A DNA stretch of 64,000 bases. It comes from an uncultured Holophaga sp. (GTDB taxonomy: Bacteria; Acidobacteriota; Holophagae; Holophagales; Holophagaceae). The stretch is taken from positions 736,001-800,000 of the forward strand of contig OY761614.1 of NCBI GenBank assembly GCA_963664825.1, written 5' to 3'. Positions 9,374 through 24,821 of this stretch are shown here, one piece after another. Below the pieces are notes generated by a model. The model was not told where the DNA came from. It searched no databases and worked only from the letters and a program-made list of their open reading frames with translations. The position numbers were made by a program, and so were the translations under genes. Every line of letters begins with the position of its first letter. Positions within the stretch are counted from its first letter, which is position 1.

Positions 9374-9447
9374 TGTAGCGCGGCAAAATGAATCGTCTGG
9401 AATCCGTCAGATTGATTGGTAATTTTCAATTATTTTGACGGATTTAG
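9374..9447. mobile_element. Orphan right end of a Mu-like transposable phage (copy 1)
   Basis: TGTAGCGCGGCAAAATGAA, identical to 12181 and 18766, followed by a tandem CCGTCA site and an inverted TTGACGG site. Confidence 0.8.
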
Positions 9448-9607
9448 CCTATCGGCTTCAGTTCCCGTTACGGAAACGGAAGTTCTTACAAAAAATGACC
9501 GCAATTGCCCATCCCCATTGGTTTCCCGAGGATGGGCGTGTTGTTGAACTGGCTACATGGTGAATTGGAGTAGTTCGAAAACCCTCTTCTGATATGGCGT
9601 TGCTGAG

Positions 9608-9735
9608 GCATTCCGAGTCGTTCCCTTTGAATTCCTGAACGGAGACGGGAATGCCCTCCCGGTTTCAGATGAGGCCCACCATGATCTGGAGCTTGTCGTT
9701 GCGCCCCTCCTTGCCGTGGGAGTAGGCACCCAAGG
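9608..9735 (-). pseudogene. IS1634-like transposase fragment
   Basis: Translates LGAYSHGKEGRNDKLQIMVGLI*NREGIPVSVQEFKGNDSEC, resembling the conserved Q..VGL....G.PV....F.GN segment; in-frame stop at 9665-9667. Confidence 0.6.
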
Positions 9736-9951
9736 TCCCTGGGTGTCAGGTGCTCAGACCAGGTTGCGTCCGAAATTACACAGTGGATCAGAGATACCCG
9801 GATTTTTGGGTTTGCCACATACTCTAAAAAGTTAGGAGTCCGCGCCGTTTCATCCGGATGGCTCCGCGTTCTGCTTCATACCCAGGTTAAGGCAGACTCG
9901 GCATGGTCTCGTGGGATCACTTCTCACGCATGCCCCCCCAAGGAGACCGGA

Positions 9952-11775
9952 ATGGAAGAGAAGATGTTACCCACCCCCATTGATAAAATGTTCGAGCTTT
10001 TATGTGAGAACGAGAAAAATGCCAGTGATTTAATCAGTATAAACAGGGATCTTGTTTTAAGTAACGAAAGCCTGGCTACGGACCTGATCGTCGCCAACAA
10101 AAACCTCGCTTGGGAAAATGAGAAGCTGACTTCGGAACTGATCTTAATAAAACAGGGGATCGCCGACCACCAAGTGGGTGAAGCTCGGCGGGCCGCCGAA
10201 CTGATCGTGGCCGATCATGAACTCGGGTTCCAGCAAAGCGAAAAGCAGAAACGTGCGGAGGAATTGGAGGTCGCCAATGCGGAGCTGACGTTCCAGCAGG
10301 GAGAGAAGAGTGAAAGGGCCGCCGAACTGGTGATCGCCAACGAAGAACTTCTCTATCAGCAAGGCGAGAAGGAAAAACGCGCGGCGGAATTGGAGGTCGC
10401 CAATGTGGAGCTGATGTTCCAGCAGGGTGAGAAGAGTGAAAGGGCCGCCGAACTGGTGATCGCCAACGAAGAACTTCTCTATCAGCAAGGCGAGAAGGAA
10501 AAACGCGCGGCGGAATTCGTGCTGGTGAATAAGGAACTCACCAAAGAAGGTGGCGAAGGAAGACGCGTGGCCGACCTGGTCCTCGCCAACCGGAAGCTGG
10601 CGTCCCAAAACGAAGAACTCGAGAAAAGATCGAAGGGCTTGCTCATCGCCAATAAGGACCGGCTGGAGTTGTTGGCCAGGCTGCTCCAGTCCCAGAAACT
10701 GGAAAGTCTCGGCACCCTTGCCGGTGGCGTGGCGCACGACATGAACAATGTGCTGGGTGCTATCCTAGGCCTCGCCTCGGTGCACCTGGAAATTCAGCCG
10801 CCGGAGAGTCCTGCCTACCGGGCCTTCGAGACCATCGCAAAGGCAGCAGTCCGAGGCGGGAAAATGGCCAAGAGCCTGCTTAGTTTTGCCCGTCAAAGTC
10901 CGGCCGTGGAGAACGAACTCGACCTCAACACCCTTCTCCGCGAGGAGGTCCGGTTGCTAGAGCGCACCACCCTGGCCAAGATCCACCTCAGCATGATGCT
11001 GACGCCGGACCTGCGGCCCATCCAGGGGGATGCCAGCGCCCTGACCAACGCCTTCATGAACCTATGCGTGAATGCTGTGGACGCGATGGAGGACAACGGC
11101 AGGCTGACCCTCCGAACCCACAATGTGGACAATGACTGGATCGAGGTCGAGGTCGAAGACACGGGGCGCGGAATGACGAAGGATGTTCTGGCGAAGGCTT
11201 TGGACCCCTTCTTCACGACCAAGGCGGAGGGTAAGGGCACAGGGCTGGGACTCTCACTGGTCTACAGCACGGTGATGGCGCACCGGGGTTCCATGACCAT
11301 CCAGAGCGCGCCGGAACAAGGCACCTGTGTAAAGATCCGCTTTCCCACCAGTGAGCCCCTGATCAAGGCGATGGAACTTGAGGATGCACACCCATCCTTG
11401 CCCTTCACCCACCACCTGCAGGTGCTAGTGGTGGACGACGACGACCTAGTGAGAGGTTCCACCCAAACCATTCTGGAATTGCTGGGACATACGGTTACGG
11501 GCGTCCCTAGCGGTGAAGAAGCCTTGGAGCAATTGGCAAGCGGCTTGGTGCCCGAGGTCGTGCTCTTGGATTTGAACATGCCTGGTCTCGGCGGAGCCGA
11601 GACCTTGAGCCGGATCCGCCTCCAATACCCTGACTTGCCAATTCTCTTGGTCACGGGCCGGGTCGACCAGACCGCTTTGGATCTCGTGGGGGCCCACCCA
11701 AATGTCACGCTGCTGGCCAAGCCCTTCACCATAAAGGAACTTCAGGCCCAGTTAAAAGCCCTGGGGTGGACGTGA
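9952..11775 (+). CDS. Cytoplasmic hybrid histidine kinase/response regulator with N-terminal coiled-coil repeats
   Basis: H-box GVAHDMNN, N-box NAVDAM, DTGRG, FFTTK and GTGLGL; receiver VVDDD/LLDLNMP/KPF; no transmembrane segment seen. Confidence 0.92.
   Translation: MEEKMLPTPIDKMFELLCENEKNASDLISINRDLVLSNESLATDLIVANKNLAWENEKLTSELILIKQGIADHQVGEARRAAELIVADHELGFQQSEKQKRAEELEVANAELTFQQGEKSERAAELVIANEELLYQQGEKEKRAAELEVANVELMFQQGEKSERAAELVIANEELLYQQGEKEKRAAEFVLVNKELTKEGGEGRRVADLVLANRKLASQNEELEKRSKGLLIANKDRLELLARLLQSQKLESLGTLAGGVAHDMNNVLGAILGLASVHLEIQPPESPAYRAFETIAKAAVRGGKMAKSLLSFARQSPAVENELDLNTLLREEVRLLERTTLAKIHLSMMLTPDLRPIQGDASALTNAFMNLCVNAVDAMEDNGRLTLRTHNVDNDWIEVEVEDTGRGMTKDVLAKALDPFFTTKAEGKGTGLGLSLVYSTVMAHRGSMTIQSAPEQGTCVKIRFPTSEPLIKAMELEDAHPSLPFTHHLQVLVVDDDDLVRGSTQTILELLGHTVTGVPSGEEALEQLASGLVPEVVLLDLNMPGLGGAETLSRIRLQYPDLPILLVTGRVDQTALDLVGAHPNVTLLAKPFTIKELQAQLKALGWT
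10189..10626 (+). repeat. 63-bp (21-aa) intragenic tandem repeat, about 7 units
   Basis: Consensus RAAEL.(I/V)AN.EL.(F/Y)QQGEK.(K/E); units 10315-10377 and 10441-10503 are identical in DNA. Confidence 0.9.
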
Positions 11776-11811
11776 ATTCCGGCTCTTCGCTGAATTGTGT
11801 GGGTAGGGCCT

Positions 11812-12180
11812 CTGGGTATCTGCCCCTGGAGCGACAGGCGGGCCATCTCCTGTTCCATCTGGTGCGCCGCCGCTATGAGAAGGGCAGCCTGCTGCTCACC
11901 AGCAACCAGCCCATCGAAGCCTGGGGCGAGATGCTGGGCGATAAGATCGTGGCGACCGCCATCCTGGACCGCCTGCTGCACCACAGCCATGTCCTGAGCA
12001 TCAAGGGCGACAGCTATCGCCTGCGAGAGAAACGCCGAGCCGGGATAGTCCCGGCACCGGAAGCCGTGGCCCCATAATCGCCGCGCCCGATGGGGCGCCC
12101 TCCGCTTCGGCCTACGCCCTCCGCTCCGGGCACCCCATCGGATTCACAACCAACAGGGGGTCAATATTCGTGTCGTCGGG
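11812..12180 (+). pseudogene. istB: IS21-family remnant: 3' end of istB ATPase plus partial right end
   Basis: GYLPL...LFHLVRRRYEKGSLLLTSN...ATAILDRLLHH...IKGDSYRLREK (stop 12077); GGGGGTCAATATTCG end-like sequence cut off by the Mu-like end at 12181. Confidence 0.88.
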
Positions 12181-12355
12181 TGTAGCGCGGCAAAATGAAC
12201 CATCATAAGTCCGTCAGAATGATTGGTCGTTTCCAAACATTTTGACGGGTTGGCCTATCAGCCTCGGTTTCCACAACGACTGCGGAACCAAGCGCGAGAA
12301 AGCCCCGAAGCGCTGATGTCCGGAGGTTTCCTGGGGTGCTGCGATATGCGGGCAG

Positions 12356-12871
12356 TCAGATCCCAAGGATGGCATCCTTGTCCGTCGCCACGATCCACGC
12401 CCGCTGAGCCTCGTAGGTCGCAACGGGGATCAGGCCCGCTGCTAGGAGGTTGGCGCGGTAGAGGACAGAGTAGGACGCCACGGGCACCACGAGTGCTGGA
12501 CGCCCCGTTTCGGCCAGCGCGGCAGTGGTCCAGGCCGCCTCAGCATCGGCCTCGCTGATCTGCGGGTTGGCCTTGATCGCGTCGATGGAGGCGGCCTTCC
12601 CCGCGAAACGCTCGGCACGCAGGAGCTGGTCGATCGTGGAATACTGGCCAAACTCGGATGTCAGCCCCGGCCCGGCACCAATCTGGAGCGCGGCCAGCTC
12701 CTGATGCGCGGAGACGTATTGCCTCCCCGCATCCTGGGACAGGGAGCCGATCACCTGGGCGGCGTTGCCCAGGGCCGTCATTTGGCCCTTAATGGACTCC
12801 ACACGGAGGGCGGCCTGCTGGCGGCGGACCTCCTGGGCGAGAGCGGTCTGGGTGTTCTGATCGAGTGCCAT
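12356..12871 (-). CDS. Phage hypothetical protein, last gene before the right end
   Basis: AAGGAG SD; 171 aa; follows the Hint-domain segment, at the position of tail-fibre accessory genes. Confidence 0.7.
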   Translation of the reverse strand: MALDQNTQTALAQEVRRQQAALRVESIKGQMTALGNAAQVIGSLSQDAGRQYVSAHQELAALQIGAGPGLTSEFGQYSTIDQLLRAERFAGKAASIDAIKANPQISEADAEAAWTTAALAETGRPALVVPVASYSVLYRANLLAAGLIPVATYEAQRAWIVATDKDAILGI

Positions 12872-12889
12872 AGTGGTCTCCTTGAAAGA

Positions 12890-14038
12890 TTACGTAGCGG
12901 GTTGAAGGACTTCGTCGTAGCGCGCTTTCAGGTTGTGGGAGAGCACGTCATCGCTGAAATAGGTGTGGCATCCATCCACCACGAAACTGATGACCTGCCC
13001 TTTGCCGGTGGGGATGATCGACTTCACGCGGCTCTCGCGCTGGGCGACGAGGAGATCACCAGGCTTGAGGTTGCGGACCTCTGCCCATCCCCCAGAGATC
13101 AGGGCCACGCGATGCGAGTCAGTGAATTCAGGCGCTCGGCCATCCTCCATCACTACGCACACCCGGTTGACCCAGCGCATATGGGGCTCTCGCACGGTGC
13201 CCACCGAGGGCTCCATGGTGGACTCGTCCACACCCACAACCTGCATCCCGTCGACGAGACTGCCCTTGGCGTCCATGCCTTCGGGCACGACCAGGCCGGG
13301 AGCGTCGATGAGCTTATTGGCCACCGCGATGTAGCGGCTCTGCTCGATATCGCCGGAATCCGCCGGGTAGGTGAGCATCAGCCGGTCGTGGGCATAGCGG
13401 GGATAATCCCGGTACGTGGCATAGGCCACGGCCACCTTGACCCGCGTCCACCGAGGCACGGTGCGGCCCCTGCCCAGGCCCCAGGGATTGCGGAAGTGGC
13501 TCCCATGCCGGTGCAGGATCAGCTTCCCAGGCTCCCAGACCCGCCCATTCACCGTGGGCGTCCGGTCCACGTCGAAGTTCAGGTAGAAGGGATCGAAGCT
13601 CTCCAGCTCCTGGGGCATCAGGTGGCCCTTGCGAACCTCCCAATGCACCTCCACGGGCACGAGGCCGTAGTAGCTGGCCTTGGCCAGTTCCTCGAAGTCC
13701 TCGATCAGGTTGAGCCCTTCCAGGGCCTCCCGGACGAGGTCCGTCACGGCCGTGGGAGTCCCAGGGCCAGGCTCCAGCGTCCAGGGCAGGCTGGAAACCA
13801 CTTGGCAGCGCAGATCCAGGCAGGCGGCGGCCTTGGGATCCCGCAGGGCGTCATGCAGCTCCTGCCACTGTCCAAGTCGATCCGTGCCGGTGTCCAGGTT
13901 CGGGTTCAAAAACCCCCCCGGAGAAAGCCAGGGAATGGCCGGGTCCGTCTCCTGGAGCACATCCAGGCGCTGGGGCTGGCTGGGCTGAGCCGCGAGAAGC
14001 GCGGGTAGGCTGCGAAGGCGAGTCCAGAGGCTGCTCAT
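12890..14038 (-). CDS. Chimeric ORF: N-terminal part of a Mu gp29/DUF935-type portal fused to a partial Hint (intein-like) domain
   Basis: Portal motifs DPKAAACLDLR...W, YYGLVPVEVHW and NPWGLG; C-terminal TDSHRV, LKPGDLL and VISFVVDGCHTYFSDDVLSHN. Confidence 0.8.
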   Translation of the reverse strand: MSSLWTRLRSLPALLAAQPSQPQRLDVLQETDPAIPWLSPGGFLNPNLDTGTDRLGQWQELHDALRDPKAAACLDLRCQVVSSLPWTLEPGPGTPTAVTDLVREALEGLNLIEDFEELAKASYYGLVPVEVHWEVRKGHLMPQELESFDPFYLNFDVDRTPTVNGRVWEPGKLILHRHGSHFRNPWGLGRGRTVPRWTRVKVAVAYATYRDYPRYAHDRLMLTYPADSGDIEQSRYIAVANKLIDAPGLVVPEGMDAKGSLVDGMQVVGVDESTMEPSVGTVREPHMRWVNRVCVVMEDGRAPEFTDSHRVALISGGWAEVRNLKPGDLLVAQRESRVKSIIPTGKGQVISFVVDGCHTYFSDDVLSHNLKARYDEVLQPAT

Positions 14039-15690
14039 TCAACCACCCCACTGCGCATGCCCAGGGCCGCTCCGCCGAAGGGACGCTTCTTGAAGCGACC
14101 GCCCGTAGCGCCCTGGAGGGCATCGGGGCCGTCGTCGTTGGGCCCCTTCGGGAACTGGAGGAGCTGCTCCTTCAGCTTCCGGATCCCCGACGCGCCCCCA
14201 TTGGCCATGGGTTCGATGGAGCCATTGCCCAGGGCCGCCGGACTCAGCCGGGGGAACCGGATCCGGCCCGTATCCACGGCGGGCGCCATGCTCTCGATGC
14301 GGGCGGTCTTCTCACCCTTGGGGGGCACCGTCGCAATGGCCAGAAAGATCCCTTCCTGGTCTGCCAGCAGCGCCACGATATCGGCCAGGGATTCCTGGTA
14401 GGCCACGGATTCAGCCTGGATGCGCCCGCCGTAGGTCTCCCGCTGGGCCAGAATGGCCTTGCCCGTCGCCGTGGGGCCAAGCTTCCTGATAACGGCATCC
14501 AGCACGTAGCAGACGCCCTCGGAGAATCCCACGGTCACCAGGGCCGTAAAGTCCCCGCGTTTCTTGCCCAGGGCCGGGTCGATATGGGTCACCAGGGTGA
14601 GCCGCTCGGGAAGCCGGTCGTACTCGTCAAAATGTTTGAAAGGTTTCGCGTCGTCGCCCTGGGCGCGGTTCTCCATCTCCTGGCTGAAGCTGCCCGGATC
14701 CTCGGCGTCCATCTTGGAACGCAGCCAGCGCAGGTGCTTCCCGGGGAAGCGCTCGGGCCAGAGGGGATTCTCGTCCTCGTCCCAGCAGCGCCAGATGGCG
14801 CCCCCGAAGGTGTGCAGCAGGGACATGAGCAGGCTGTCGTCGTGCAGGACCGTGCCCAGGCAGAGCAACGATCCCCGGGTGGGATCCAGCGCCGGGATCA
14901 CGGCCTTGATGAACCAGCCCCGGAGCTTCTTGCGGCGGGCCGGGCTCTCCACGGCCTCGTCGTTCTCCACGTCGTCCATCACCACCAGGTCCGGACGGCG
15001 GCCCTGGAACGTGCGACCACGGAGCTTCTGGCCCGAGCCGAAGGCCTGGAGGCGAGCGTGCTTGAAGGGGGGCTTCTCGCCCCCTGCCCTTGCGGGAATC
15101 ACCAGGTCTAGGACGCCCTCGGGGCCTTCCGCATGGATCTGCCCATAGTCCGTGCGGATGCGGGGGCTCTCCTCAAGCACCAGGCGCACAGCCTCCACAA
15201 AGCCCTTGGCCTGGTCGAAGGTGTCGCTCACGGCCTGGGCATAGCCCTTGCGGCCCTCCAGGAGGCACCACGCCAGGAAGGCGATGGTCCCCCAGGTGCT
15301 CTTAGCATGGCCACGGGGCGCGGCCAGGACGGCGGCATGGATGTCCGGCGTCTCCTCCCCTTCTTCCACCTGGCGCGGCACCAGCTCCCCGAAGGGACCC
15401 GGATCCACGGGCACCGGCTCCCGGCCCTCGGCCAGGGCCTGGCAGGTGGCCGCCAGGGCTTCATGCAGGGCGCATCCGTTCCCCTGGATCAGCTCGGGAA
15501 GGTAGGTCCGAGCGAAGAAGGTGAAGTCCTGGTGGGCGCGGGCGCGGCGGCGCATGCCGCCCTCGGGGGTGCGCTCGGAGACCGGGAAGTCCTCCATCTC
15601 CCGCAGTCGGGAGATCAGCTCCTCCAGCTGCTGGGCAGCCTTTCGAGCCTGCGCCTTGCTGGCGCGGGGAATGGAGACGCGGGAAGCCAT
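14035..15690 (-). CDS. Phage terminase large subunit
   Basis: Walker A APRGHAKST, Walker B VVMDDVEND, nuclease IDPA and DDGPDAL; ORF intact. Confidence 0.92.
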   Translation of the reverse strand: MASRVSIPRASKAQARKAAQQLEELISRLREMEDFPVSERTPEGGMRRRARAHQDFTFFARTYLPELIQGNGCALHEALAATCQALAEGREPVPVDPGPFGELVPRQVEEGEETPDIHAAVLAAPRGHAKSTWGTIAFLAWCLLEGRKGYAQAVSDTFDQAKGFVEAVRLVLEESPRIRTDYGQIHAEGPEGVLDLVIPARAGGEKPPFKHARLQAFGSGQKLRGRTFQGRRPDLVVMDDVENDEAVESPARRKKLRGWFIKAVIPALDPTRGSLLCLGTVLHDDSLLMSLLHTFGGAIWRCWDEDENPLWPERFPGKHLRWLRSKMDAEDPGSFSQEMENRAQGDDAKPFKHFDEYDRLPERLTLVTHIDPALGKKRGDFTALVTVGFSEGVCYVLDAVIRKLGPTATGKAILAQRETYGGRIQAESVAYQESLADIVALLADQEGIFLAIATVPPKGEKTARIESMAPAVDTGRIRFPRLSPAALGNGSIEPMANGGASGIRKLKEQLLQFPKGPNDDGPDALQGATGGRFKKRPFGGAALGMRSGVVE

Positions 15691-15929
15691 CAGCGGCGGC
15701 CCTTCCGGCGGGGCTGAAGCTCATCGGCGGCTGCGGTCGCATACCAGGCGGCCTTCCGGAGATCCTCAGCCGCAGGGCCCTTGAGTCCGGCCCGCCAGGC
15801 GTATTTCACGACAGCACCCCGGCAGTAGGCCTGGAAGCCTTCCGGCCCGAGGGCCGCCTTCAGGGCCTCGATGCACTCGATGTCGCCTTGGGTGTAGTGG
15901 CTGGGATGATTGATGAGATCGGCTTTCAT
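15690..15929 (-). CDS. DUF3310 phage protein
   Basis: INHPSHYTQGDIECIEA...KYAWRAGLKG...EDLRKAAWY. Confidence 0.9.
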   Translation of the reverse strand: MKADLINHPSHYTQGDIECIEALKAALGPEGFQAYCRGAVVKYAWRAGLKGPAAEDLRKAAWYATAAADELQPRRKGRR

Positions 15930-16078
15930 GGCTTTTCCTTGTCGGGATCACGGAAGGGGCAGTCGTCAAAGGCGGCGCCGCAGGAATCCAGCACGCGGCA
16001 GACCCGGCACTCGGGGGCCACCGTGGCGGCCAGGAAGTGGTTCACGTCAGGCTCTGGAGGCAGCAGCGGCACGCTCAC
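15926..16078 (-). CDS. Small 4-Cys protein (50 aa)
   Basis: Below the ORF-track cutoff; 4-bp overlaps with both neighbours; MSVPLLPPEPDVNHFLAATVAPECRVCRVLDSCGAAFDDCPFRDPDKEKP. Confidence 0.7.
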   Translation of the reverse strand: MSVPLLPPEPDVNHFLAATVAPECRVCRVLDSCGAAFDDCPFRDPDKEKP

Positions 16079-16572
16079 ACGGACCTCCGCTGCATTTCAT
16101 CCAGGAAGCCCTTCCAGGCCTCCAGCAGGGCCGGAGCCTCCTCCGGGCATTCCTTCAACACGAAGGCCTGGAACTCCTCACCCACCACCAGCGCGGCATC
16201 CATGAGCCGGTAGCCCTGGCGTTTGGCGATCATGAGCTTGAATTTGTTGACGTTGCCAAGGAGGCTCAGCAGGTCGGGAATGGGCAGGTCGTCGCCATCC
16301 CGGTCCAGGCGGCCCAGGAGGCGGCGCAGGGCCCGCTCCTCCAGGTCATCCAGGGCCATGCCATGGACCTGGAGCCAGCTTTCCCGCGCCTCCCGCCAGT
16401 GCCCTTCCTTGGCCCAGGCCTGCACTGTGCGGGAGCTGCATCCGATCGCCTCGGACACCTGGTCAGGCGTCTTGGCATCCTCAATGAAGAGGCGCCGTGC
16501 CTTCGCCCGATCCTCGTCCGTCCAGCGGGTATTGCCATGGGGTTTTGCCGGGGGCTGGGGCTTGGGCTTCAT
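16075..16572 (-). CDS. Probable terminase small subunit (DUF1804-like HTH)
   Basis: ARRLFIE...VSEAIGCSSRTVQAWAKEGHW HTH; upstream of the large terminase. Confidence 0.7.
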   Translation of the reverse strand: MKPKPQPPAKPHGNTRWTDEDRAKARRLFIEDAKTPDQVSEAIGCSSRTVQAWAKEGHWREARESWLQVHGMALDDLEERALRRLLGRLDRDGDDLPIPDLLSLLGNVNKFKLMIAKRQGYRLMDAALVVGEEFQAFVLKECPEEAPALLEAWKGFLDEMQRRSV

Positions 16573-16886
16573 GGCCGAGCCGCTTTCTTGGCAAATTCAA
16601 GAAGCGTTGCCTGGAGGGTCTGTCCCATGGCATCCAGGCGGCCTTCCATGCGGACGGCCAGCGCTTCCAGGCGATCGCGCATCTCGTCGCCCGTCGGCAG
16701 GGCTTCCATGCCCTTCTTGAGCACGGAGACGAGGGTTTCCAGGTGCTGGACCTTCCGCTCCAGTTCGTTGATCTTGGCCCACTGGGCCCTGGCGTCGGAC
16801 TTGGCCTGGGCTCGAAAAGCTCCCCAGATGGCGATGGAGATCATGGCCAGGAGGGCGGCCAAGGCGATCCAGTCGGCGGGTTTCAT
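16569..16886 (-). CDS. Phage membrane-anchored coiled-coil protein (DUF2730-like)
   Basis: N-terminal TM helix plus coiled coil with ALPT motif; usual position between lysis and packaging genes. Confidence 0.6.
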   Translation of the reverse strand: MKPADWIALAALLAMISIAIWGAFRAQAKSDARAQWAKINELERKVQHLETLVSVLKKGMEALPTGDEMRDRLEALAVRMEGRLDAMGQTLQATLLEFAKKAARP

Positions 16887-17357
16887 TCATCCCCCGCCGC
16901 AGGCTTGGACTTGAAGAGGAGCGCATCCTTGGCCCGGCTACCGCTGGAGGAGCCGTAGTAGTAGTTCACACAGCCGACCCAGGCCGTGCCCAGGGAGCCG
17001 AGCATCGTATAGACGCTGGCCTTGTTGGAGTCCGGGATGGGCCGGATGAGCAGGAACACCAGCAGCCCGAAGAACCCCACCGTGATGGCATAGAACCCGA
17101 TGGCCGGGACATGGTCCCGCACGGACATCTCACGTTTGCGGGCGCTGTCCCGGTCGCTGGCGGCGATCTGCTCCAGGTCCACCAGCTGCTTGAAGCCCAT
17201 GGCCTGCATGCGCTCCTCGTGCTCCTGCTCGGCCTGATTCAGGGCCAGGAACTGGTCCCCGGTGAGGGAGCCCGCTGCGGCCATCTGGGCGGCCTTCTGG
17301 GCGTTCTCCAGGCTGGGAGCCAGGCCCGTGGCTTTGCAGACGGCCTCCACGGCGATA
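16883..17357 (-). pseudogene. 3TM-type holin, 5'-truncated by IS256
   Basis: DRDSARKRE, two TM helices and YYYGSSSGS; the frame runs into IS sequence near 17357. Confidence 0.75.
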
Positions 17358-18046
17358 GAGTCCCATCAAGTGGTGTAGCAGTGGTTCAGTGAGAGGTGGC
17401 CACCGGTTCCGTAAGGTGAGGTTTGCGAACTTACCGAACGGAGAGACCGATGGCCATCAATAGGGTGTCTGGGCTGGAAGCCCTGAGCAAGGTTTTGGAG
17501 GAGGGGAACGGTGATTTCCTGCGGCGTGTGCTGCTGATGGGGCTGGAGGCGGTGATGGAGTCCGACGTTTCGGGGCTCTGCCAAGCGGGCCCTGGGGAGC
17601 GGACGCCGTCACGGGAGAACCACCGAAACGGCTACCGCGACCGGGAACTGGAAACGCGGCTGGGCACGCTGCCGCTGGCCATCCCAAAGCTCCGGCAGGG
17701 CAGCTACTTCCCGAACTTCCTGGAGCCGCGCCGTCGGTGGGAACAGGCCTTCGTGAACGTGGCGGCAGAGGCCTACGTCGCGGGCGTGAGCACGCGAAAG
17801 GTCGAGGCGTTGGTGGAGGCCCTAGGCTGCCGGGGGATGTCGAAGTCCGAGGTCTCCCGGCTGGCGCAGGAGTTGGATGCGGAGGTGGAGGCGTTCCGGA
17901 ACCGCCCGCTGGAAGGTTCTTTCCGCTACCTCTGGCTGGACGCCCTCTATCCGAAGGTTCGGGAAGGCGGGCGCGTGGTAGGGCTGGCGGTGATGGTGGC
18001 CATGGCCGTGAATGCGGAGGGTAAACGCGAGGTGCTGGGGCTGGGT
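17358..18046 (+). mobile_element. Truncated IS256-family element (transposase from ATG 17450, about 200 codons left)
   Basis: RNGYRDR.LETRLG.L.L.IPKLRQGSYFP, GVSTRKV, YLWLDA and GKREVLG; similarity ends there. Confidence 0.9.
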
Positions 18047-18180
18047 TCGCCTGTGCATATCGAATTGGGCGCTTTCCAGTGCTTTGCGTTCAGATACGCC
18101 CCGGCATCGCCGCATTGGGACACGATCAAGATCCGGATGCGTTCCCAAAATTCATCTGGAGTCTTGGACGTTTTGGACAT
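18047..18180 (-). pseudogene. 5' fragment of an unknown gene abutting the IS256 remnant
   Basis: GAGG SD, then MSKTSKTPDEFWERIRILIVSQCG...; lower GC; reads into antisense IS sequence. Confidence 0.35.
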
Positions 18181-18453
18181 TGGAAAATGTCTGGACCTCT
18201 AAGTTGAAGCCCCCGCCATGATTGGCTCTCGGACGTTTCGGTCATTCCAACATTCTCCTGTAATGAACCGCATGGTTTGGCACGTCACTACTGATTGTTC
18301 TGGTGCGCCAAAGCAATCGAACCATGACGCGCCTTCACTCGGTTTGGGAAACGCCACTGAAATCCAGTCCCACAGCAAGAATGAGACTGCCGTATGGGCG
18401 ATTTGCCCCCAACAATAAAATATGGGTAGAAGGATGGGTTGACATAGCAATGA

Positions 18454-18489
18454 ATCGTCAAGTCACCTTTTAACAGTGACTTGGCGATT
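18454..18489 (-). terminator. Hairpin downstream of tRNA-Ser
   Basis: AATCGTCAAGTCAC / GTGACTTGGCGATT inverted repeat. Confidence 0.55.
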
Positions 18490-18493
18490 GTTT

Positions 18494-18583
18494 TGGCGGA
18501 GAGATAGGGATTCGAACCCCAGTTACGGTCACCCGTAAACCTGATTTCGAGTCAGGCGCATTCGACCACTCTGCCATCTCTCC
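18494..18583 (-). tRNA. tRNA-Ser(CGA)
   Basis: GGAGAGA acceptor stem, anticodon arm CCTGA-CTCGAAA-TCAGG, long variable arm, GGTTCGAATCC and encoded CCA. Confidence 0.97.
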
Positions 18584-18845
18584 AGGCGCAGAATCATATC
18601 AGGATTCCGGCTTCCGCTGGAGGGGCACTCCACAATCCTGGATACAGGAGGCCTGGATGACGATTTCGCAAGGGGCGGCGCTTTGGGCTACCCGGCGCTG
18701 ATGCCCCGAGCCGCGCCTCCGGAGGCTACAGGGCGAACATGGCTGGGCGGTTTCGCCGTTCAGACTGTAGCGCGGCAAAATGAATCGTATGGAATCCGTC
18801 AGAATGATTGGTAGACTTCAAACATTCTGACGGCTCAGCCTACGG

Positions 18846-19184
18846 TCACTCCTTCACCGCCGCTAAATCGGCCCGGATTTCGATATCCAGGAGCGCCTCC
18901 CATAGCCCCCCAAGGGTTGTTTGGGTGCCATTCCCCAGGGTTATGACCGTCGCCAAGATTGCAGCGGTTTTAGACACATCCAGGGACAGCCAGTGGGCGT
19001 TCATCCCCAGAGCCAGGGGTGTTGTCTGCCCGTTCGCCCCAACTGCGAACTTATCATCAGCGTAAGCCAGGGTCAGAGAATGCTGGGACGTCCCATCGGG
19101 CATCTGGAGGCGGTTGACGCTCCAGTTGGTGGCTATGGTCTCCGTGACGATGTTCTCTGTCGTGGTGGTGGTTTGTGCGGCCAT
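18846..19184 (-). CDS. Phage hypothetical protein, last gene before the right end
   Basis: AGAGGA SD; 112 aa; follows the tail-fibre fragment. Confidence 0.7.
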   Translation of the reverse strand: MAAQTTTTTENIVTETIATNWSVNRLQMPDGTSQHSLTLAYADDKFAVGANGQTTPLALGMNAHWLSLDVSKTAAILATVITLGNGTQTTLGGLWEALLDIEIRADLAAVKE

Positions 19185-19199
19185 GTGGGTTCCTCTTTG

Positions 19200-19680
19200 T
19201 TAGTTGGTGCATAGCAGAACCACGTCGTAGACGTAGACTGTCGCCTGAGCGGTGTGGTAGCCGTCCTTTGCATTTCCCGCCCTCGCCGATGAGAGGGTGA
19301 CCCGTACCCGGATGGTTGTGCTGTTTGTAACTGTGATATTTGCGATCGTGACGGGACTGCTCGCGGAAAGGCTAAGGTTCGAGCCAGGGGCCGTGATGGT
19401 CTGGGAATAGGGCCATGTGGAACCGTTATCAAGAGAGATCTCCACTTTGACCGAGGCATTCGTACGGATTGTTGTATCCGCAACGGAGTTGTGCCAGGTA
19501 ACCCCTCCGAGAGTGCCACCGAGGGCGACCATCAGGACTCCATTACGCGTCCCGGTGCCACCCCAGCCCTGATAAACCCCATACGCGTAGTTGATGCCAA
19601 TAGTGGTAGCGGGAGGGGTCTGGGAATTGGTCGAATAGGTGCTAGTTTCAACGCCTGCGCTGAAACGCGACTGGAGGTCG
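19200..19680 (-). pseudogene. C-terminal fragment of a tail fibre/receptor-binding protein
   Basis: Thr/Ser/Gly-rich beta-type sequence (EISLDNGSTW); frame is open upstream of Met 19532 to about 19680; lower GC. Confidence 0.6.
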
Positions 19681-19852
19681 TGACGGGATCATCGGTCACC
19701 GTCACATTGGGCAGCGTCCGGAGATAGACGGCCTGGGCGGCGGTGATGGGGATCGCCGTATCGGCCGTCAGTTCCAGGCCGGAGGCCGGAATGGAGGGAT
19801 CGTTGCTGGAGTTGAGGCAGAGCGTGCTGCCGGTGTGGATCGCTTTGGGCAT
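19532..19852 (-). pseudogene. Small virion gene truncated at a deletion junction
   Basis: MPKAIHTGSTLCLNSS...LPNVTVTDDP, then out-of-frame read-through into tail-fibre DNA. Confidence 0.5.
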
Positions 19853-19856
19853 GGGG

Positions 19857-20240
19857 TCATCCGATGAGTTGGGCGAAGAGCGCCCCGACGAAAACGGGGT
19901 GGAGGCGCTCTGGGCGAGTGGTTTTGGGAACGAAATTGGTGTGGGCCTCTTCCATCCAGGCCCGAATGGCGAAAAGGGCGTCCATGGCGCTCTGGCGCCG
20001 GACCTTCTGATCCGTCCCAGGCACCACGGCGCAGAAAGCGAAGTCGATCGCATCTCCGCCACGCACGACATGGTTGCCTCCCACCACGGCCACCAGCAGG
20101 TGGGGCGCTGCCAGGTTCAGTTCGTCGTTTTCCAGATCCACCTGGCCTGCCAGGGATTCGATGGCGAATTCCCGGAGTTCAGGCAGATCGGCAGCGATCA
20201 GGGCTTCCACGGCGGATTCCTCGAGGGCAGTGACGTTCAT
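19857..20240 (-). CDS. Probable tail-terminator (Mu gp37-position) protein
   Basis: AGGAGG SD; ATGA overlap with the upstream gene; MNVTALEESAVEAL..., 127 aa. Call rests mainly on synteny. Confidence 0.6.
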   Translation of the reverse strand: MNVTALEESAVEALIAADLPELREFAIESLAGQVDLENDELNLAAPHLLVAVVGGNHVVRGGDAIDFAFCAVVPGTDQKVRRQSAMDALFAIRAWMEEAHTNFVPKTTRPERLHPVFVGALFAQLIG

Positions 20241-20821
20241 GCGCCCTCCTGGATCCGTCCGGTGAGGATGAAGGTGGTCACCATCTCGGCGTAGTTCTCC
20301 GCCTCCCCAGGCTGAAAGAGGAGGTAGGGGCGGGCGGGCATGGGAATGCCATAGGCCCCATGGGTGAAGGCCCGCTCCACGGCCCGCTTGTGATGGCCAG
20401 CCGCAAAAACCGCCAGGTGGGAATTCCGCCCCTCGGTTCCCTGCCGGAGCAGACGGCCCTTGGCGTCCGTGCGCAGGCGCACGGTGCCGCTCTTTGCAGA
20501 ACGGGGGATGATGCCCCCCTCCTGATGGATCCGGGCGTAAGGCCAATTCGAGCCGATGGCGACGGTTTTCCCCTGCACTTGGGCCACGACCGAGCGGGCC
20601 AGGTTGCCCGACCATGTGAGGATCTTGCTCTTCCCTCTGGCGGTCTTCCGCCGACGGGTGGCCTTCTTCACTTCCTGCCAGCGATCGGGGCGCCCCTCGG
20701 CCCGGAAGTTCTGCTCCGTGCTTCGGATCATCAGATCCCCGATCGCCTTCAGGACGGGCGTCGGGTCCTCCGCCCTGGCCTGGGTAGCTTGCAGACTGGT
20801 GAGCAGCTCCTGAGGTGTCAT
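20237..20821 (-). CDS. Phage virion morphogenesis protein (Mu gpG-like)
   Basis: NFRAEGRPDRW, ILTWSGNLARS, IGSNWPYARIHQEGG and MPARPYL. Confidence 0.9.
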   Translation of the reverse strand: MTPQELLTSLQATQARAEDPTPVLKAIGDLMIRSTEQNFRAEGRPDRWQEVKKATRRRKTARGKSKILTWSGNLARSVVAQVQGKTVAIGSNWPYARIHQEGGIIPRSAKSGTVRLRTDAKGRLLRQGTEGRNSHLAVFAAGHHKRAVERAFTHGAYGIPMPARPYLLFQPGEAENYAEMVTTFILTGRIQEGA

Positions 20822-21249
20822 GGGCGCCCCCCGAAGGCGCCGTCCACGGCATGGGCCGGGTCCAGCACCTCGATGCGATGAGCGGAGGTGGACCCCGCCA
20901 GGCCGCCCGGAATCGGGATCTCTCCCGAGGCCAGGCGATCCAGCAGAGCCCGACTGCGTTTGATGCGACTGTCCCAGCCCTCGGGGATCTTGGCGGCCAT
21001 GCCCTTCTGGCGGAGATAGAGGGCCTCCACCGCCAGGTCCAGGCAGATCTCCCGGAGGATCCCCTCCGGGGTGACCGGAAGGGCATGTCCAGCCAACACG
21101 CCCCGAACCTCCACCTCCGCCCGGTCCAGGACGCCCTGCAGCACCGTTTCGTCAGGAGCGGCCGCACGTCCTTCTCCGGTGGAGAGGGTGATCAGGTCCG
21201 CCTGGGAGAGGCGGGCTTGCAGGGCGGAGGGCTGGAACCATGCGCTCAT
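20818..21249 (-). CDS. Mu gp36/DUF1320 head-tail joining protein
   Basis: LDRAEVEVRGVLAG..LPVTP...LREICLDLAVEALY...LLDRLASGEI. Confidence 0.85.
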   Translation of the reverse strand: MSAWFQPSALQARLSQADLITLSTGEGRAAAPDETVLQGVLDRAEVEVRGVLAGHALPVTPEGILREICLDLAVEALYLRQKGMAAKIPEGWDSRIKRSRALLDRLASGEIPIPGGLAGSTSAHRIEVLDPAHAVDGAFGGRP

Positions 21250-21251
21250 GG

Positions 21252-22151
21252 CTACAGCACGCCGGAGAGGCCGCGACCGAGGTCGGCGCCGACCTTCTTC
21301 ATGTCATAGGCCGCACCCAGGGCGATGACGCTGCCACCGGAATTGCCGATCTCCGGGTCTTCCCAGAGGCGCACCAGGCGCCCCCGGTCATTGGCCGCAT
21401 AGACCTGGCTGGTGGTCTTCGGGGCCTCGGAAGCATAGAGTTCCTGCCCCTCCAGCTCGAAGATGGCGGCGAAGGTGGCATCGGCCTCGCTCAGTTCGTC
21501 CTGGGGAGCGCGGTAGCAGAGGAAGACCTCGTCGCCCCAGACGTAGTCATAGACCGCCGCCCGGCCCTTGGGGGTGGTGATGCCCTTCATCTCGGGCACC
21601 AGGATCTCCTTCACCTCAAAGATCTCCGCCAGCTGGGGGAGCGTCAGGGATCCGGGCTGGGCGTTTCCGCGCAGGGCCAGCATCTTGGGGTGGTATTGCA
21701 GACGGTCCACCACCCGACGGCCCAGGACGCAGAGGTTGCTGCCCATGAGGACCTTCTGACGCAGGGCCTTCATGTCCTTGACGGGATCGGAGGCGTCGTC
21801 GGACCACTTGGTGGCCACGGCGTCGTGGGTGAATCCGGCCACCAGGACGGCGGCATCGGCTTCCACATCCATATCCAGCTTTCCCTGAAGGGTCTGAACC
21901 GCCCGATTGACGCGGTTGACCTGGAAGGGGGTGAGGGTCTGGATGCCGAAGGGCACTTCCTGGCGGAGGCCCCAATCCTTGCAGGCATAGCCGTCCGTCG
22001 TTTCACCTTCGGTGATGGACTTGGGGCGGGCTAGGCGGGCCATCTTGCCGCTCTCACGGCGGAACACGGCCTCCTTGTCGAAGAGGGTGTAGGTGCCGCC
22101 CCGGAGGGACACCGGCACTCGGTTGAAGAGCCGCCGGGCAATGGGGAGCAT
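21252..22151 (-). CDS. Phage major capsid protein, probably missing a short N-terminus
   Basis: IARRLFNRVPV..GTY..FDKE, KWSD..SDPVKD, LQYHP and VWGD motifs; GGAGGA 9 nt before ATG 22151. Confidence 0.8.
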   Translation of the reverse strand: MLPIARRLFNRVPVSLRGGTYTLFDKEAVFRRESGKMARLARPKSITEGETTDGYACKDWGLRQEVPFGIQTLTPFQVNRVNRAVQTLQGKLDMDVEADAAVLVAGFTHDAVATKWSDDASDPVKDMKALRQKVLMGSNLCVLGRRVVDRLQYHPKMLALRGNAQPGSLTLPQLAEIFEVKEILVPEMKGITTPKGRAAVYDYVWGDEVFLCYRAPQDELSEADATFAAIFELEGQELYASEAPKTTSQVYAANDRGRLVRLWEDPEIGNSGGSVIALGAAYDMKKVGADLGRGLSGVL

Positions 22152-22312
22152 GTGCCATCGTCCTCCAACTTCCAATCAGGGGAATTCGAAGGTTGGATAA
22201 GGGAATTTGCAGGTTGTGGCGATGGCGTGCTTGGTTGTGGCGTGGTTCCGATTAGCGACACAACCGCCGCAACCTTCGGTTGCGTCGCCAAGATGGTAGC
22301 CAGGGATTCCAT
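22152..22312 (-). pseudogene. 5' stub of the early gene after ner, cut by the internal deletion
   Basis: MESLATILATQPK...; runs out of frame into capsid DNA; composition shifts near 22150. Confidence 0.5.
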
Positions 22313-22321
22313 CGGTGATCC

Positions 22322-22654
22322 CTATGCCACATTCTCGGCCTGGCGGCCCCACATACGATTAGCTTCGAGACCAAGGCGAGTCGCAATTACATTCTCAACG
22401 GTGGCATCGCGGCGGGTACGGTCGATAACTTGATGAAAGTAGGCGTCGCTATAACCAGCCGCCTCTGCCATGGGTTTGACCTCAACACCCTTGAATTTGA
22501 GCAGGGCGCGGATGGTCTGGGACATCAGGCTGCCATCGGCGTTCACCCCACCAGCCATAATGAGTTGAACGTCCTGGGTGCTCCTCAGGAAGACATTTAG
22601 ATCTGCAGGCAAGCCATAGGCCGCCCTCTTACGTTGGGCCTTTTCGGGTAGCAT
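22322..22654 (-). CDS. Ner/Nlp-like HTH regulator
   Basis: IRALLKFKG...MAEAAGYS...ENVIATRLGLEANRMW; divergent from the repressor; GGAG SD before ATG 22654. Confidence 0.75.
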   Translation of the reverse strand: MLPEKAQRKRAAYGLPADLNVFLRSTQDVQLIMAGGVNADGSLMSQTIRALLKFKGVEVKPMAEAAGYSDAYFHQVIDRTRRDATVENVIATRLGLEANRMWGRQAENVA

Positions 22655-22697
22655 CTTGGTCTCCAGTTGCTTTGAACACGAAGCGTGTCTGTCCACT

Positions 22698-22725
22698 AGA
22701 ATAGATTCTGAACGAATCGCGTCAA
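22698..22725 (-). promoter_or_regulatory. Early (Pe-like) promoter
   Basis: TTGACG-16 nt-TATTCT on the minus strand; GATTC-N5-GAATC palindrome in the spacer. Confidence 0.5.
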
Positions 22726-22752
22726 CTCTTTTTTGAGTCTAAACGTATCAAA

Positions 22753-23475
22753 ATGGATAACTCCCAGCCACATGAGAGACTTACATTGGCGAGGCAAACC
22801 CTTGGCCACAGCCAACGAGCGTTCGCTATTCCCCTAGATGTCTCCCAGGCGGCCGTGCATCGCTGGGAATCAGGGGATGTAGCGTTGACACGTATCGTAT
22901 TGACCGCGATTGAACACATCCACGGGATTTCTGAGCACTGGGTCAATACTGGCGAAGGCCTTATGTGGGCCCCAAAAAACACATCTCCCGAAGGCGGCGC
23001 CGACCTGGAATACCGCCCTCTCATCTCGGGCGCGGCCTCGTGTGGCCCTGGTGGGGAGATCGCCGACCCTGGCCCAACGGCAATGCGAATGCCCTTCCGC
23101 AAAGACTTCCTCCAGGAGCTGCTCCAAGAAAGCGGTGCCGGATCCACAGAAGATCTCTATGTCGTGGAATGCTCCGGTGAATCCATGCGGCCAGCCGTCC
23201 ACCCTGGCGACATGGCTCTCATCAACACATCCCTTGAACTTCGGATACAACCCAAGCGGAACGCCCTCTACCTAGTGCGTTCCGACCCAGCCAGTGCAGA
23301 GGGCCGCATCAAGCGAGTCCGCATTGATGCCGATGGTCAGCTCTGGTTCATGTCGGATGCACCAGGCTTTCCACCAATCGCTGTCGACCTGGATAGCCTG
23401 CCCTTGCAGAGCCTCATCCTTGGCCGCATCTGCTGGCTTGCCCGCAGCGTCGTTAAGGACGAGCGGAACTGGTAG
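22753..23475 (+). CDS. CI/LexA-type phage repressor (XRE HTH plus S24 peptidase)
   Basis: HSQRAFAIPLDVSQAAVHRWESG HTH; ASCG cleavage-site motif; GESM Ser and IKRV Lys. Confidence 0.9.
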   Translation: MDNSQPHERLTLARQTLGHSQRAFAIPLDVSQAAVHRWESGDVALTRIVLTAIEHIHGISEHWVNTGEGLMWAPKNTSPEGGADLEYRPLISGAASCGPGGEIADPGPTAMRMPFRKDFLQELLQESGAGSTEDLYVVECSGESMRPAVHPGDMALINTSLELRIQPKRNALYLVRSDPASAEGRIKRVRIDADGQLWFMSDAPGFPPIAVDLDSLPLQSLILGRICWLARSVVKDERNW

Positions 23476-23485
23476 GCGGCTCGTT

Positions 23486-23706
23486 CCAAACATATTGACG
23501 GATTTAGAAGGTCCACGAAGGATCCGAAGCTCATCCGCAGCATCCGCGCATTCTTTTTGACGGATTTCCGCTTCGTTACGCGTCATCCGTCCCAAACTTA
23601 TTGACGGATTCGCAGGTATTCAGATCACCATGAAAGCCCCGCCCGCATTGAATTTCAGGCCATGTGCCCGAATCGGTCGTCATGCGAATCATTTCGACGG
23701 ATCACA
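23486..23706. repeat. Left-end transposase-binding site array
   Basis: TTGACGGATT-containing sites at 23486-23504, 23548-23566 and 23592-23610; terminal site CGAATCATTTCGACGGATCACA at 23685-23706. Confidence 0.85.
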
Positions 23707-24821
23707 CAGACGCTGGATGCCGGCGGTGTTTTGAAACAGCCAAAGTAGTCCCGGTCCCCCTGGAGCAGGTGGTCGCGGACCACCTCCACGGCGAGGAAGG
23801 TCACCAATCGCCCCAGATCCAGGCGGCCCGCATCCAGATCCTGTTCCAGGTCCTGGATGGAACTCAACAGCCGCTGGTGCTCGGCGGCATGGGCGGGAAG
23901 GGCCGGGTAGCCAACTTCCAGAAGCCGCGCCTCCTCGTCATGGAAGTGCTGCGCCACGTGGGCGATGAGGCGCCGCAGGTGGAGCCCCAGATCGGCCGAG
24001 GGCTGGCCGCCGTCCATGGAGGCGAAGAGACTGTTCGTCAGTTCGAAGAGTTCCTGGTGCTGGGCATCGATCTGGGGCTGCCCGGAGGCGTATGCGTCGT
24101 CCCAGTTCAGCCGGAAGGGGATGGCGTGGACACCTTCCAGGAGCCCCACCACCCTCGACGCGCACTCCAGGCGGTTCCGCCCCCCCTCCTTGGCGCGATA
24201 TAGAGCCTGGTCCCCCCGGGCGATCCAGTGTTCAAACTCCTCCCCCAGCCCATACTCGGCTACGCCCAGACTCAGGGTGAGGCTTCCGCAGCCGGGAAAG
24301 ACCGTGGAGGCCACGGCCAGACGGATTTTCTCGCCCAAAGCCATCGCCCCCTCCAGGCGCGTCCCCGCCGCCAGGATCAGGAATTCCTCCCCTCCCCAAC
24401 GGGCCAGGAAATCCGAAGCCCGCAACTGCTCGCGCACCACCTCGGCCACGGTGGCCAGCACCGCGTCCCCGACGGCATGACCGTAGGTGTCGTTGACGCG
24501 CTTGAAGTAGTCCAGATCGAAGAACAGGAGGCTGAGAGGGTCCCCCCGGCGACCCGCCAGGGCGATGAGGGTAGTCCCGGCCTCCTCCAGGCGCCGACGG
24601 TTCCACAATCCCGTCAGCCGGTCGGTGCCCGCCACCCGCTCGAGGCTCTCGACAACATTGAGCAGCTCCCGGTTGGCATGTTCCGCCGCATCCCTGGCGC
24701 GTTCCGCCTCTGCCAGGTACCGACATGACCTCCTTCCACCCAGGAGATAGCCGATCCACGCCCCGCCGAGGAGGAGCGACAGACCCAGCAGCCAGGGGAT
24801 AGAGAGCATGAACCTACTCAT
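23655..24821 (-). CDS. Membrane-anchored diguanylate cyclase with C-terminal bacteriohemerythrin
   Basis: TM helix; DLDYFKRVNDTYGH and RWGGEEF; IDAQH, HFHDEE, HAAEH and HLLQGD iron ligands; ATGA overlap with tadA. Confidence 0.9.
   Translation of the reverse strand: MSRFMLSIPWLLGLSLLLGGAWIGYLLGGRRSCRYLAEAERARDAAEHANRELLNVVESLERVAGTDRLTGLWNRRRLEEAGTTLIALAGRRGDPLSLLFFDLDYFKRVNDTYGHAVGDAVLATVAEVVREQLRASDFLARWGGEEFLILAAGTRLEGAMALGEKIRLAVASTVFPGCGSLTLSLGVAEYGLGEEFEHWIARGDQALYRAKEGGRNRLECASRVVGLLEGVHAIPFRLNWDDAYASGQPQIDAQHQELFELTNSLFASMDGGQPSADLGLHLRRLIAHVAQHFHDEEARLLEVGYPALPAHAAEHQRLLSSIQDLEQDLDAGRLDLGRLVTFLAVEVVRDHLLQGDRDYFGCFKTPPASSVCVIRRNDSHDDRFGHMA

Follow-up and report, generated by a model that had tools for sequence, protein, structure and literature searches.

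RESULTS

A small Mu-like element flanked by a 5-bp duplication

The 64,000-nt stretch of contig OY761614.1 analysed here (the window), which belongs to the genome that we call G000, contains beside a tRNA-Ser(CGA) gene an element of 4,941 bp that begins with TG at position 18766, ends with CA at 23706 and is flanked by two copies of CAGAC (Table 1). The element carries the ends, the repressor–ner switch and a few head genes of a Mu-like transposable phage, and is very probably what two deletions have left of a Mu-like prophage of about 38 kb, rather than a satellite. Members of the phage family to which it belongs are found, with strong preference and in a fixed orientation, directly 3′ of tRNA genes.

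A first-pass annotation, made from the sequence alone, had already described the TG..CA ends, the duplication and a Mu-type arrangement of end sites, and these are borne out at exact coordinates. Mu, from which the gene names used here are taken, also has TG..CA ends, with several transposase sites laid out asymmetrically at the two ends. The tail-side end, at the left in the window and equivalent to the right end of Mu, comprises a terminal site and a second one, besides an inverted pair (18796–18810/18819–18833), whereas at the repressor-side end the terminal 23-bp site is set apart from the next by 93 bp, start to start. These putative binding sites, several per end, are recognized by their layout only.

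Table 1. Features of the element and of the adjoining tRNA gene (window positions)
Feature	Position	Strand	Remarks
Host tRNA-Ser(CGA)	18494..18583	-	5′ end 183 bp from the tail-side end of the element; co-directional
Target duplication, left copy	18761..18765		CAGAC
Tail-side end (equivalent to Mu attR)	18766..18833	+	terminal TG; two sites and one inverted site
112-aa ORF	18846..19184	-	last gene before the tail-side end; no Pfam/PHROG match
162-codon open frame	19200..19688	-	Thr/Ser-rich; no start at its 5′ end
Junction 2 (approximate)	19686..19694, about 19688		gp38-position ORF joined to the start-less frame
gp38-position small ORF	19688..19852	-	residues 1–55 match G048/G077 genes
gp37-position ORF	19857..20240	-	127 aa; no family match
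gpG-like virion morphogenesis/Neck1 protein	20237..20821	-	194 aa; PF05069 (E 8.6e-23), phrog_26
Mu gp36-like head–tail adaptor	20818..21249	-	143 aa; PF07030 (E 7e-11), phrog_195
Major capsid gene, 5′-truncated	21252..22151	-	299-aa frame; homology from residue 24 of relatives; fold match
Junction 1	22143..22144		out-of-frame fusion of the transposase 5′ stub with the capsid gene
Transposase A 5′ stub	22144..22312	-	about 56 codons; reads into transposase A in remnant A of G000
ner-like regulator	22322..22654	-	110 aa; PF13693, phrog_769
Divergent ner/repressor promoter region	22655..22752		two weak matches to the consensus, close to the 1.5 expected by chance
CI-type repressor	22753..23475	+	240 aa; helix–turn–helix and S24 peptidase domains; PF00717, phrog_4
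Repressor-side end (equivalent to Mu attL)	23482..23706	-	four direct 23-bp sites; terminal CA
Target duplication, right copy	23707..23711		CAGAC
(aa, amino acids; ORF, open reading frame)

Contigs of four sequencing runs (X1, X2, X4 and X5) were compared with the window. X1 and X2, two study codes that possibly represent one campaign, both contain the stretch almost fully, and in each a single contig crosses 18894–23582 without any difference and at a depth similar to that of the flanks (21.9 versus 18.9–22.7 in X1, 5.55 versus 6.4–7.3 in X2). The structure is therefore real, and misassembly can be dismissed. The X4 and X5 contigs are fragmented over the stretch. Amplification or activity, which their depth at junction 1 (226 versus about 11) might have indicated, was discarded as an explanation, the contig concerned (21832–22308) being bounded by GANTC sites; such contig ends point to restriction-cut libraries.

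Two junctions and a shortened capsid gene

Relatives were sought in 133 genomes of the order, one genome per species. Prophages with a full gene set were found in G048 (38.5 kb, with a CTGAT duplication), G077 (36 kb, with flanks that do not match) and G021 (44.7 kb). In G048 and G077 the order is repressor, ner, A, B, early genes, lysis, terminase, portal, protease, capsid, gp36, gpG, gp37 and tail. The genes of the element are orthologous to and collinear with those of complete prophages encoding A and B (G048, G077, G019), and about 13% of the full-length complement is retained. The first-pass annotation had explained the missing genes by two internal junctions, near 22150 and 19680, and we now place them at 22143/22144 and at about 19688. 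With the G048 prophage as reference, the loss is estimated at about 22 kb for junction 1 and at about 11 kb of tail genes for junction 2.

The same annotation had listed the repressor, ner, capsid, gp36-like, gpG-like and gp37-position ORFs as open. All these frames are indeed open and roughly as long as their homologues, except that the capsid gene is not intact: junction 1 cuts it at about codon 24, leaving 299 aa as compared with 317–320 aa in the eight closest of the other hits (16 hits). The N-terminal stretch of about 23 residues that is missing here is present in all 15 other rows of the alignment, and homology to the 320-aa capsid protein of G019, the closest relative among the matches listed (74% nucleotide identity over 19837–22143), begins at its residue 24. 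The native ribosome site of the capsid gene, which is present in G019, G048 and G077, has been lost from the element together with the start, because the transposase 5′ stub directly precedes junction 1. A native start combined with a small in-frame deletion was also considered and is disfavoured by the missing ribosome site. A model of the shortened protein matches capsid structures (best 3bjq, E 1.3e-14); since the fold prediction for the full-length protein failed (pLDDT 42), the effect of the N-terminal loss can only be deduced indirectly.

Junction 2 cuts the gp38-position ORF near codon 55. Its residues 1–55 are 56–62% identical to genes of 65–73 aa in G048 and G077, after which the frame is lost. 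The 162-codon frame on the other side, judged by its position, probably represents what is left of the 3′ part of a gene for a tail or fibre protein; no homologue of it, including a longer one, was found, which is a weak negative. The gp37-position ORF is 49–60% identical to the position-equivalent genes of G019, G048 and G077. Look-alikes of the 112-aa ORF in the Atlas are hypothetical proteins, and two of its three top clusters are mostly viral, a weak indication given the low recognition score.

The transposase stub bears a cluster of short direct and inverted repeats (22180–22291) that may play an enhancer-like role. A short repeat cluster also follows ner in the relatives L016, L017, L037 and L041, in the 5′ region of the transposase gene; it takes a different form in each of them, which makes it a candidate phage-specific enhancer. 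Complete relatives also encode a sigma-70-type factor among their early genes (L040:19131–19802, L037:6978–7649), a fragment of which persists in remnant B of G000.

A capsid scan of viral contigs gave no match with a single protein and three loci with an alignment, all in native late-gene order; the scan of genome contigs gave one match, a G019 contig, and that of metagenome contigs none. Scans of viral and metagenome contigs with the end motif were also without matches. Among 401 genomes of the phylum, G000 and G048 were the only ones to give a match in a transposase search. The end motif also occurs in G098, G130 and G010, but with no phage genes linked to it, and these matches were excluded from every count.

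Copy number, helper genes and other deleted derivatives

The first-pass annotation had proposed the element as a candidate satellite of a transposable phage, which a helper could move and package and which might confer immunity or interfere with helper assembly. As a satellite, the unit would be copied by the A and B proteins of the helper and packaged in helper heads, and its capsid and neck genes would hijack or disturb helper assembly. Recurrence of the same structure at other loci with other flanks was to support the proposal, and a single copy with unique junctions, among other findings, to refute it. A single copy with unique junctions is what we found. The element is present once in G000, where elsewhere only its ends and the repressor and ner genes have matches, and neither of its internal junctions recurs in that genome. 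Among the 133 genomes, junction 1 is spanned in G000 alone, and the element was not found in eight genomes of the same genus.

Nor does G000 contain the helper A and B genes that the same proposal called for. Its transposase sequences are N-terminal pieces only (residues 27–324 and 28–193 of 742), and MuB, which is present in 8 of the 133 genomes, has no match. Of 124 query proteins from relatives, 37 had any hit in G000, and the protease, decoration, tail tube, tape measure and tip genes had none. A search of G000 with PF09299 returned nothing, but as no control gave a match either it is uninformative.

The family has nevertheless left many traces in G000: seven tail-side ends, four repressor-side ends and three repressor types, the repressor of the element being 73% and 58% identical to those of other remnants. 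The repressor–ner region is kept in all four G000 remnants with a repressor-side end, and also in G076 and G074. Remnants A and B have their own junctions and an outer duplication GCCGC; remnant C has a GCTAG duplication, an internal inversion between two IS66 copies and again its own junctions. G076 contains a derivative of 4,148 bp with a TTTGC duplication that comprises a repressor gene, ner fused to a tail fragment and one tail gene, with no head genes, and G074 contains two of 18.7 kb (AGAAG) and 12.3 kb (CTGGC), each with both ends and the duplication. In all these derivatives the repressor end is kept, the middles and junctions differ, and the head block is absent. Differing middles with a constant repressor end are predicted by decay; they are not predicted for a satellite.

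Several further remnants lie in the window and elsewhere in G000. A second, separate Mu-like remnant in the window (12181–17350, minus strand) has a tail-side end at 12181 and a 171-aa ORF, followed by a portal gene cut after about residue 262–282 and then by intact-looking large and small terminase genes, DUF3310 and genes in the lysis position. Its repressor side has been lost at an IS256 fragment (17423–18202), and it sits 3′ of tRNA-Ser(CGA), co-directionally. The tail of the truncated portal ORF (12893–13250), without a family match, resembles a HINT/intein-type fragment. Behind a third tail-side end, at 9374, come a histidine kinase/receiver gene and an IstB fragment (9374–12074). At G000:2637009–2677958 (L015–L017) the two Mu remnants A and B are stacked 39 bp apart, with a single outer duplication enclosing the pair; their cargo includes a two-component cluster, a lanthipeptide cluster (dehydratase, LanC, C39 ABC transporter) and many insertion sequence copies. 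An orphan end (L019, G000:2987561–2988665), identical to that of the element, is joined to a tyrosine-integrase fragment and follows the duplicated 3′ end of a tRNA-Met at a distance of 1,060 bp.

Insertion of the phage family next to tRNA genes

A search with ner retrieved 18 loci in 11 of the 133 genomes; that of G146, whose contig ends within the repressor gene, was dropped, leaving 17 assessable loci. At 11 of these the repressor-side end lies 79–227 bp 3′ of a tRNA gene or of a tRNA 3′ half, and in all 11 the element is co-directional with the tRNA. The tRNA is tRNA-Ser for G000-B (118 bp), G048 (79 bp), G076 (227 bp), G019:C113 (101 bp), one locus of G074 (92 bp) and G065:C81 (93 bp, a promoterless 3′ half only). 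It is tRNA-Pro for two loci of G074 (121 bp and 121 bp) and for G021 (104 bp), tRNA-Arg for G004 (125 bp) and tRNA-Lys for G019:C50 (190 bp, with a tentative assignment of the end), so that a preference restricted to serine tRNAs was dropped. The 5-bp flanks of the 11 elements all differ. Seven of the 11 have a matching duplication, namely G000-B (the outer pair of A and B), G019:C113, G048, G076, G021 and two of the three in G074; it was sought without success at G074a and G004, and G065:C81 and G019:C50 were left out of the search.

The six exceptions are of several kinds. Remnant A is stacked behind B, and the window element lies 183 bp away on the 5′ side of its tRNA, co-directionally. G065:C83 is 1,108 bp from a tRNA gene, also co-directional, and appears to interrupt a reading frame. 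G000-C, G125 and G077, the last with only 141 bp of flank, have no tRNA gene nearby.

As background, the stretches of up to 250 bp that follow tRNA or tmRNA genes on their 3′ side make up 0.36% of G000 and 2.1% of its intergenic DNA, the intergenic share being derived from rough gene calls. The probability of 11 or more such loci among 17 is 3e-15, with a 250-bp cut-off that was picked after the data had been seen and with one genome as background for all loci. Five loci were obtained after the idea had formed; of the four that are assessable three fit the rule (probability of three or more, 3.5e-5). The replication fork does not account for the orientation, which follows the tRNA even at remnant B, which lies against the fork, and at a divergent tRNA pair of G019:C113, where ends point both ways.

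At G019:C113, two elements face away from a divergent tRNA pair, one off tRNA-Ser(TGA) and the second off tRNA-Ser(GCT). Behind tRNA-Ser(TGA), at a distance of 36–70 bp, three tandem and progressively longer copies of the repressor-side terminus are found (L076:7461–7516), which suggests repeated insertion at one spot. In G000, a segment of 480 bp (window 18037–18519) that terminates with the 3′ end of tRNA-Ser is duplicated with 96% identity at G000:2678317–2678796, at another tRNA-Ser locus beside an HsdM gene; this suggests one end of a tRNA-Ser-integrating island at two sites.

DISCUSSION

Origin of the element

The structure of the element demonstrates insertion by transposition and two internal deletions. 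A complete Mu-like phage of about 36–45 kb would have inserted beside tRNA-Ser(CGA) and created the CAGAC duplication. One deletion would then have removed transposase A except for about 56 codons, B, the early, lysis and packaging genes, the protease and the 5′ end of the capsid gene, and a separate one nearly all tail genes. The ends and the repressor–ner switch survive because the deletions are internal, and a loss of lethal genes with the repressor kept may have been tolerated or favoured. The head-completion block would be simply what lay between the two deletions; now placed behind the early promoter, it is probably silent as long as the repressor is made. Without the A, B, packaging and tail genes of an intact Mu-like prophage, the element belongs with the defective Mu-like prophages, a kind already known, and is an ordinary product of decay. 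Of the proposal made in the first-pass annotation, the internally deleted Mu-like structure with intact ends and an immunity switch stands, and decay in place, which it had named as the alternative, fits best.

Some observations weigh against this reading. The repressor, ner, gp36, gpG and gp37 genes are free of stops and frameshifts. An ATG in the transposase-derived DNA, with GGAGG 10 nt upstream, could serve as start of the shortened capsid gene. The first 158 bp of the tail-side end are identical to the orphan end at G000:2988665, where the flank differs, and remnants A and C have in common an arm of 1,461 bp (99.9%), both indicative of recent transposition. Transposition has thus been recent in this lineage, by full or by deleted forms, between which the data do not discriminate. 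Finally, our comparison is based on contigs, from which rare alternative flanks drop out.

The recent transposition, the open state of four late ORFs and the intactness of both ends and of the repeat cluster after ner are what a satellite would also show. Mobilization in trans is possible in principle: a laboratory mini-Mu with only the ends is moved by A and B supplied in trans (PMC3145075). However, the element is a single copy with unique junctions in a genome without helper A/B, its capsid gene is truncated, and it has no late activator. Moreover, the genes that remain are plain orthologues of phage genes, still in their native order, and do not form a diverged module, and the independent 4.1-kb derivative in G076, which has both ends, lacks any head gene, as the other deleted derivatives examined lack the head block. 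That the element is a satellite is therefore, in our view, highly improbable; neither intact ends nor a duplication nor open late frames suffice to identify one.

Alternatively, the host may keep the remnant under selection as a domesticated immunity cassette, the repressor, perhaps together with an early-expressed, dominant-negative truncated capsid protein, shielding it against superinfecting relatives. The consistent retention of repressor and ner and the three repressor types in G000 would agree with this, but repressor retention is equally expected from plain decay, and the element was not found in its eight congeners. The ratio of non-synonymous to synonymous substitution rates (dN/dS) against relatives, suggested for the capsid gene in the first-pass annotation, is 0.27 for that gene and 0.21 for the repressor; these values reflect the long history of the phage rather than the period since the deletions, so that they cannot date selection. 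We consider such domestication unlikely. As for the function of the gutted prophage, it most likely would give immunity to its own phage type, a consequence that we infer from the loss of lethal genes with the repressor kept; it would not be self-mobile and would at most be moved passively by the A and B proteins of an incoming relative.

Comparison with known systems

The element resembles phage Mu and defective Mu-like prophages in its TG..CA ends, 5-bp duplication, multi-site asymmetric ends, repressor–ner–A–B order, gp36- and gpG-type genes and decay by internal deletion. It differs from Mu in having a lambda-E-family capsid protein (PF03864, phrog_1005), a CI-type repressor with an S24 domain and four sites at the repressor end. 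Phage satellites (P4-like, PICI, cf-PICI and PLE) are typically recognized by a conserved architecture and by integrase or replication genes of their own. The element is small, lacks tail genes and carries capsid and neck genes and a switch, a loose likeness to cf-PICI. In contrast to satellites, it has a truncated capsid gene, no terminase, no portal, no conserved hijacking or packaging module and no architecture conserved across sites or genomes, and none of its ORFs matches the integrase or replication families of these satellites in Pfam or PHROG. Like a laboratory mini-Mu (LR/LER), it keeps both ends, lacks A and B and is movable in trans in principle (PMC3145075). Unlike it, the element is a natural deletion product that shows no sign of having moved and still has a repressor, which would be expected to counteract a homoimmune helper. 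Only engineered mini-Mu is mentioned in the accessible part of PMC8705779.

Mu is the textbook case of near-random integration. In the literature searched, which comprised few subscription papers and no supplements, we found no transposable phage for which oriented insertion next to tRNA genes had been described. Mu-like prophages of E. coli are described as randomly integrated (PMC3603311), whereas the present family is tRNA-adjacent and oriented. A parallel is provided by Tn7-like transposons, including type I-B2/I-D CRISPR-associated transposons (CASTs), which combine a DDE transposase with an AAA+ ATPase, as the phage family does, and insert in one orientation a short way 3′ of tRNA genes; CyCAST, guided by TnsD, inserts 30–33 nt behind a tRNA gene (PMC10293859). 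The present elements differ in being tailed phages, in their broad range of distances and in the variety of tRNAs used (Ser, Pro, Arg, Lys), and among 30 early gene products of G048 and G077, a part of their gene sets, Pfam detected no TniQ/TnsD or Cas match. The gene after B, which encodes a common winged-helix phage protein, is a candidate target selector.

An oriented preference of the Tn7 kind for one class of site is seen as a genomic pattern in 11 of the 17 loci, whether from targeting or from survival, the window element itself lying on the 5′ side. It seems to us an evenly balanced proposition that the family actively homes, in fixed orientation, to sites just 3′ of tRNA genes in a Tn7/CAST-like manner without a recognizable TniQ/TnsD. 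It may read the tRNA 3′ half, the part behind which the G065:C81 element lies, and repeated insertion and deletion would build up, at these sites, stacks of mini-elements with both ends and a repressor, the 4.9-kb unit among them, that an incoming relative might still move. Somewhat doubtful, but to be taken seriously, is the alternative that the clustering reflects the survival of near-random, harmless insertions in permissive DNA, or a general liking for hairpins, rather than targeting. The loci are, after all, surviving prophages and not fresh insertions, six of the 17 (the window element among them) fall outside the 250-bp rule, and G065:C83 appears to have entered a reading frame. Moreover, Mu avoids mature tRNA sequence and enters the leaders and trailers of pre-tRNAs (PMC7350765), and the Pseudomonas saltovirus Ab30/2P1, likewise a transposable phage, has hairpin-linked, BIME-adjacent hotspots 55–61 bp from a host motif that take up 5% of events (PMC5977238). 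On the other hand, the Ab30 hotspots show no orientation bias and, in the text of that paper, no link to tRNA, in contrast to the 11 of 11 oriented insertions behind tRNAs found here. The positions concerned also make up only a narrow share of the intergenic space, as the low probabilities given above reflect, and the orientation tracks the tRNA and not the replication fork.

The element itself is thus of a known kind, and the pattern shown by its family matters more: insertion just behind tRNA genes, co-directionally, is not reported for Mu and is the result worth following. If true, the use of such safe sites by a Mu-like phage, in a fixed orientation behind tRNA genes, would connect the target choice of Mu with that of Tn7, would imply an undescribed target selector and may offer a site-preferring integration tool.

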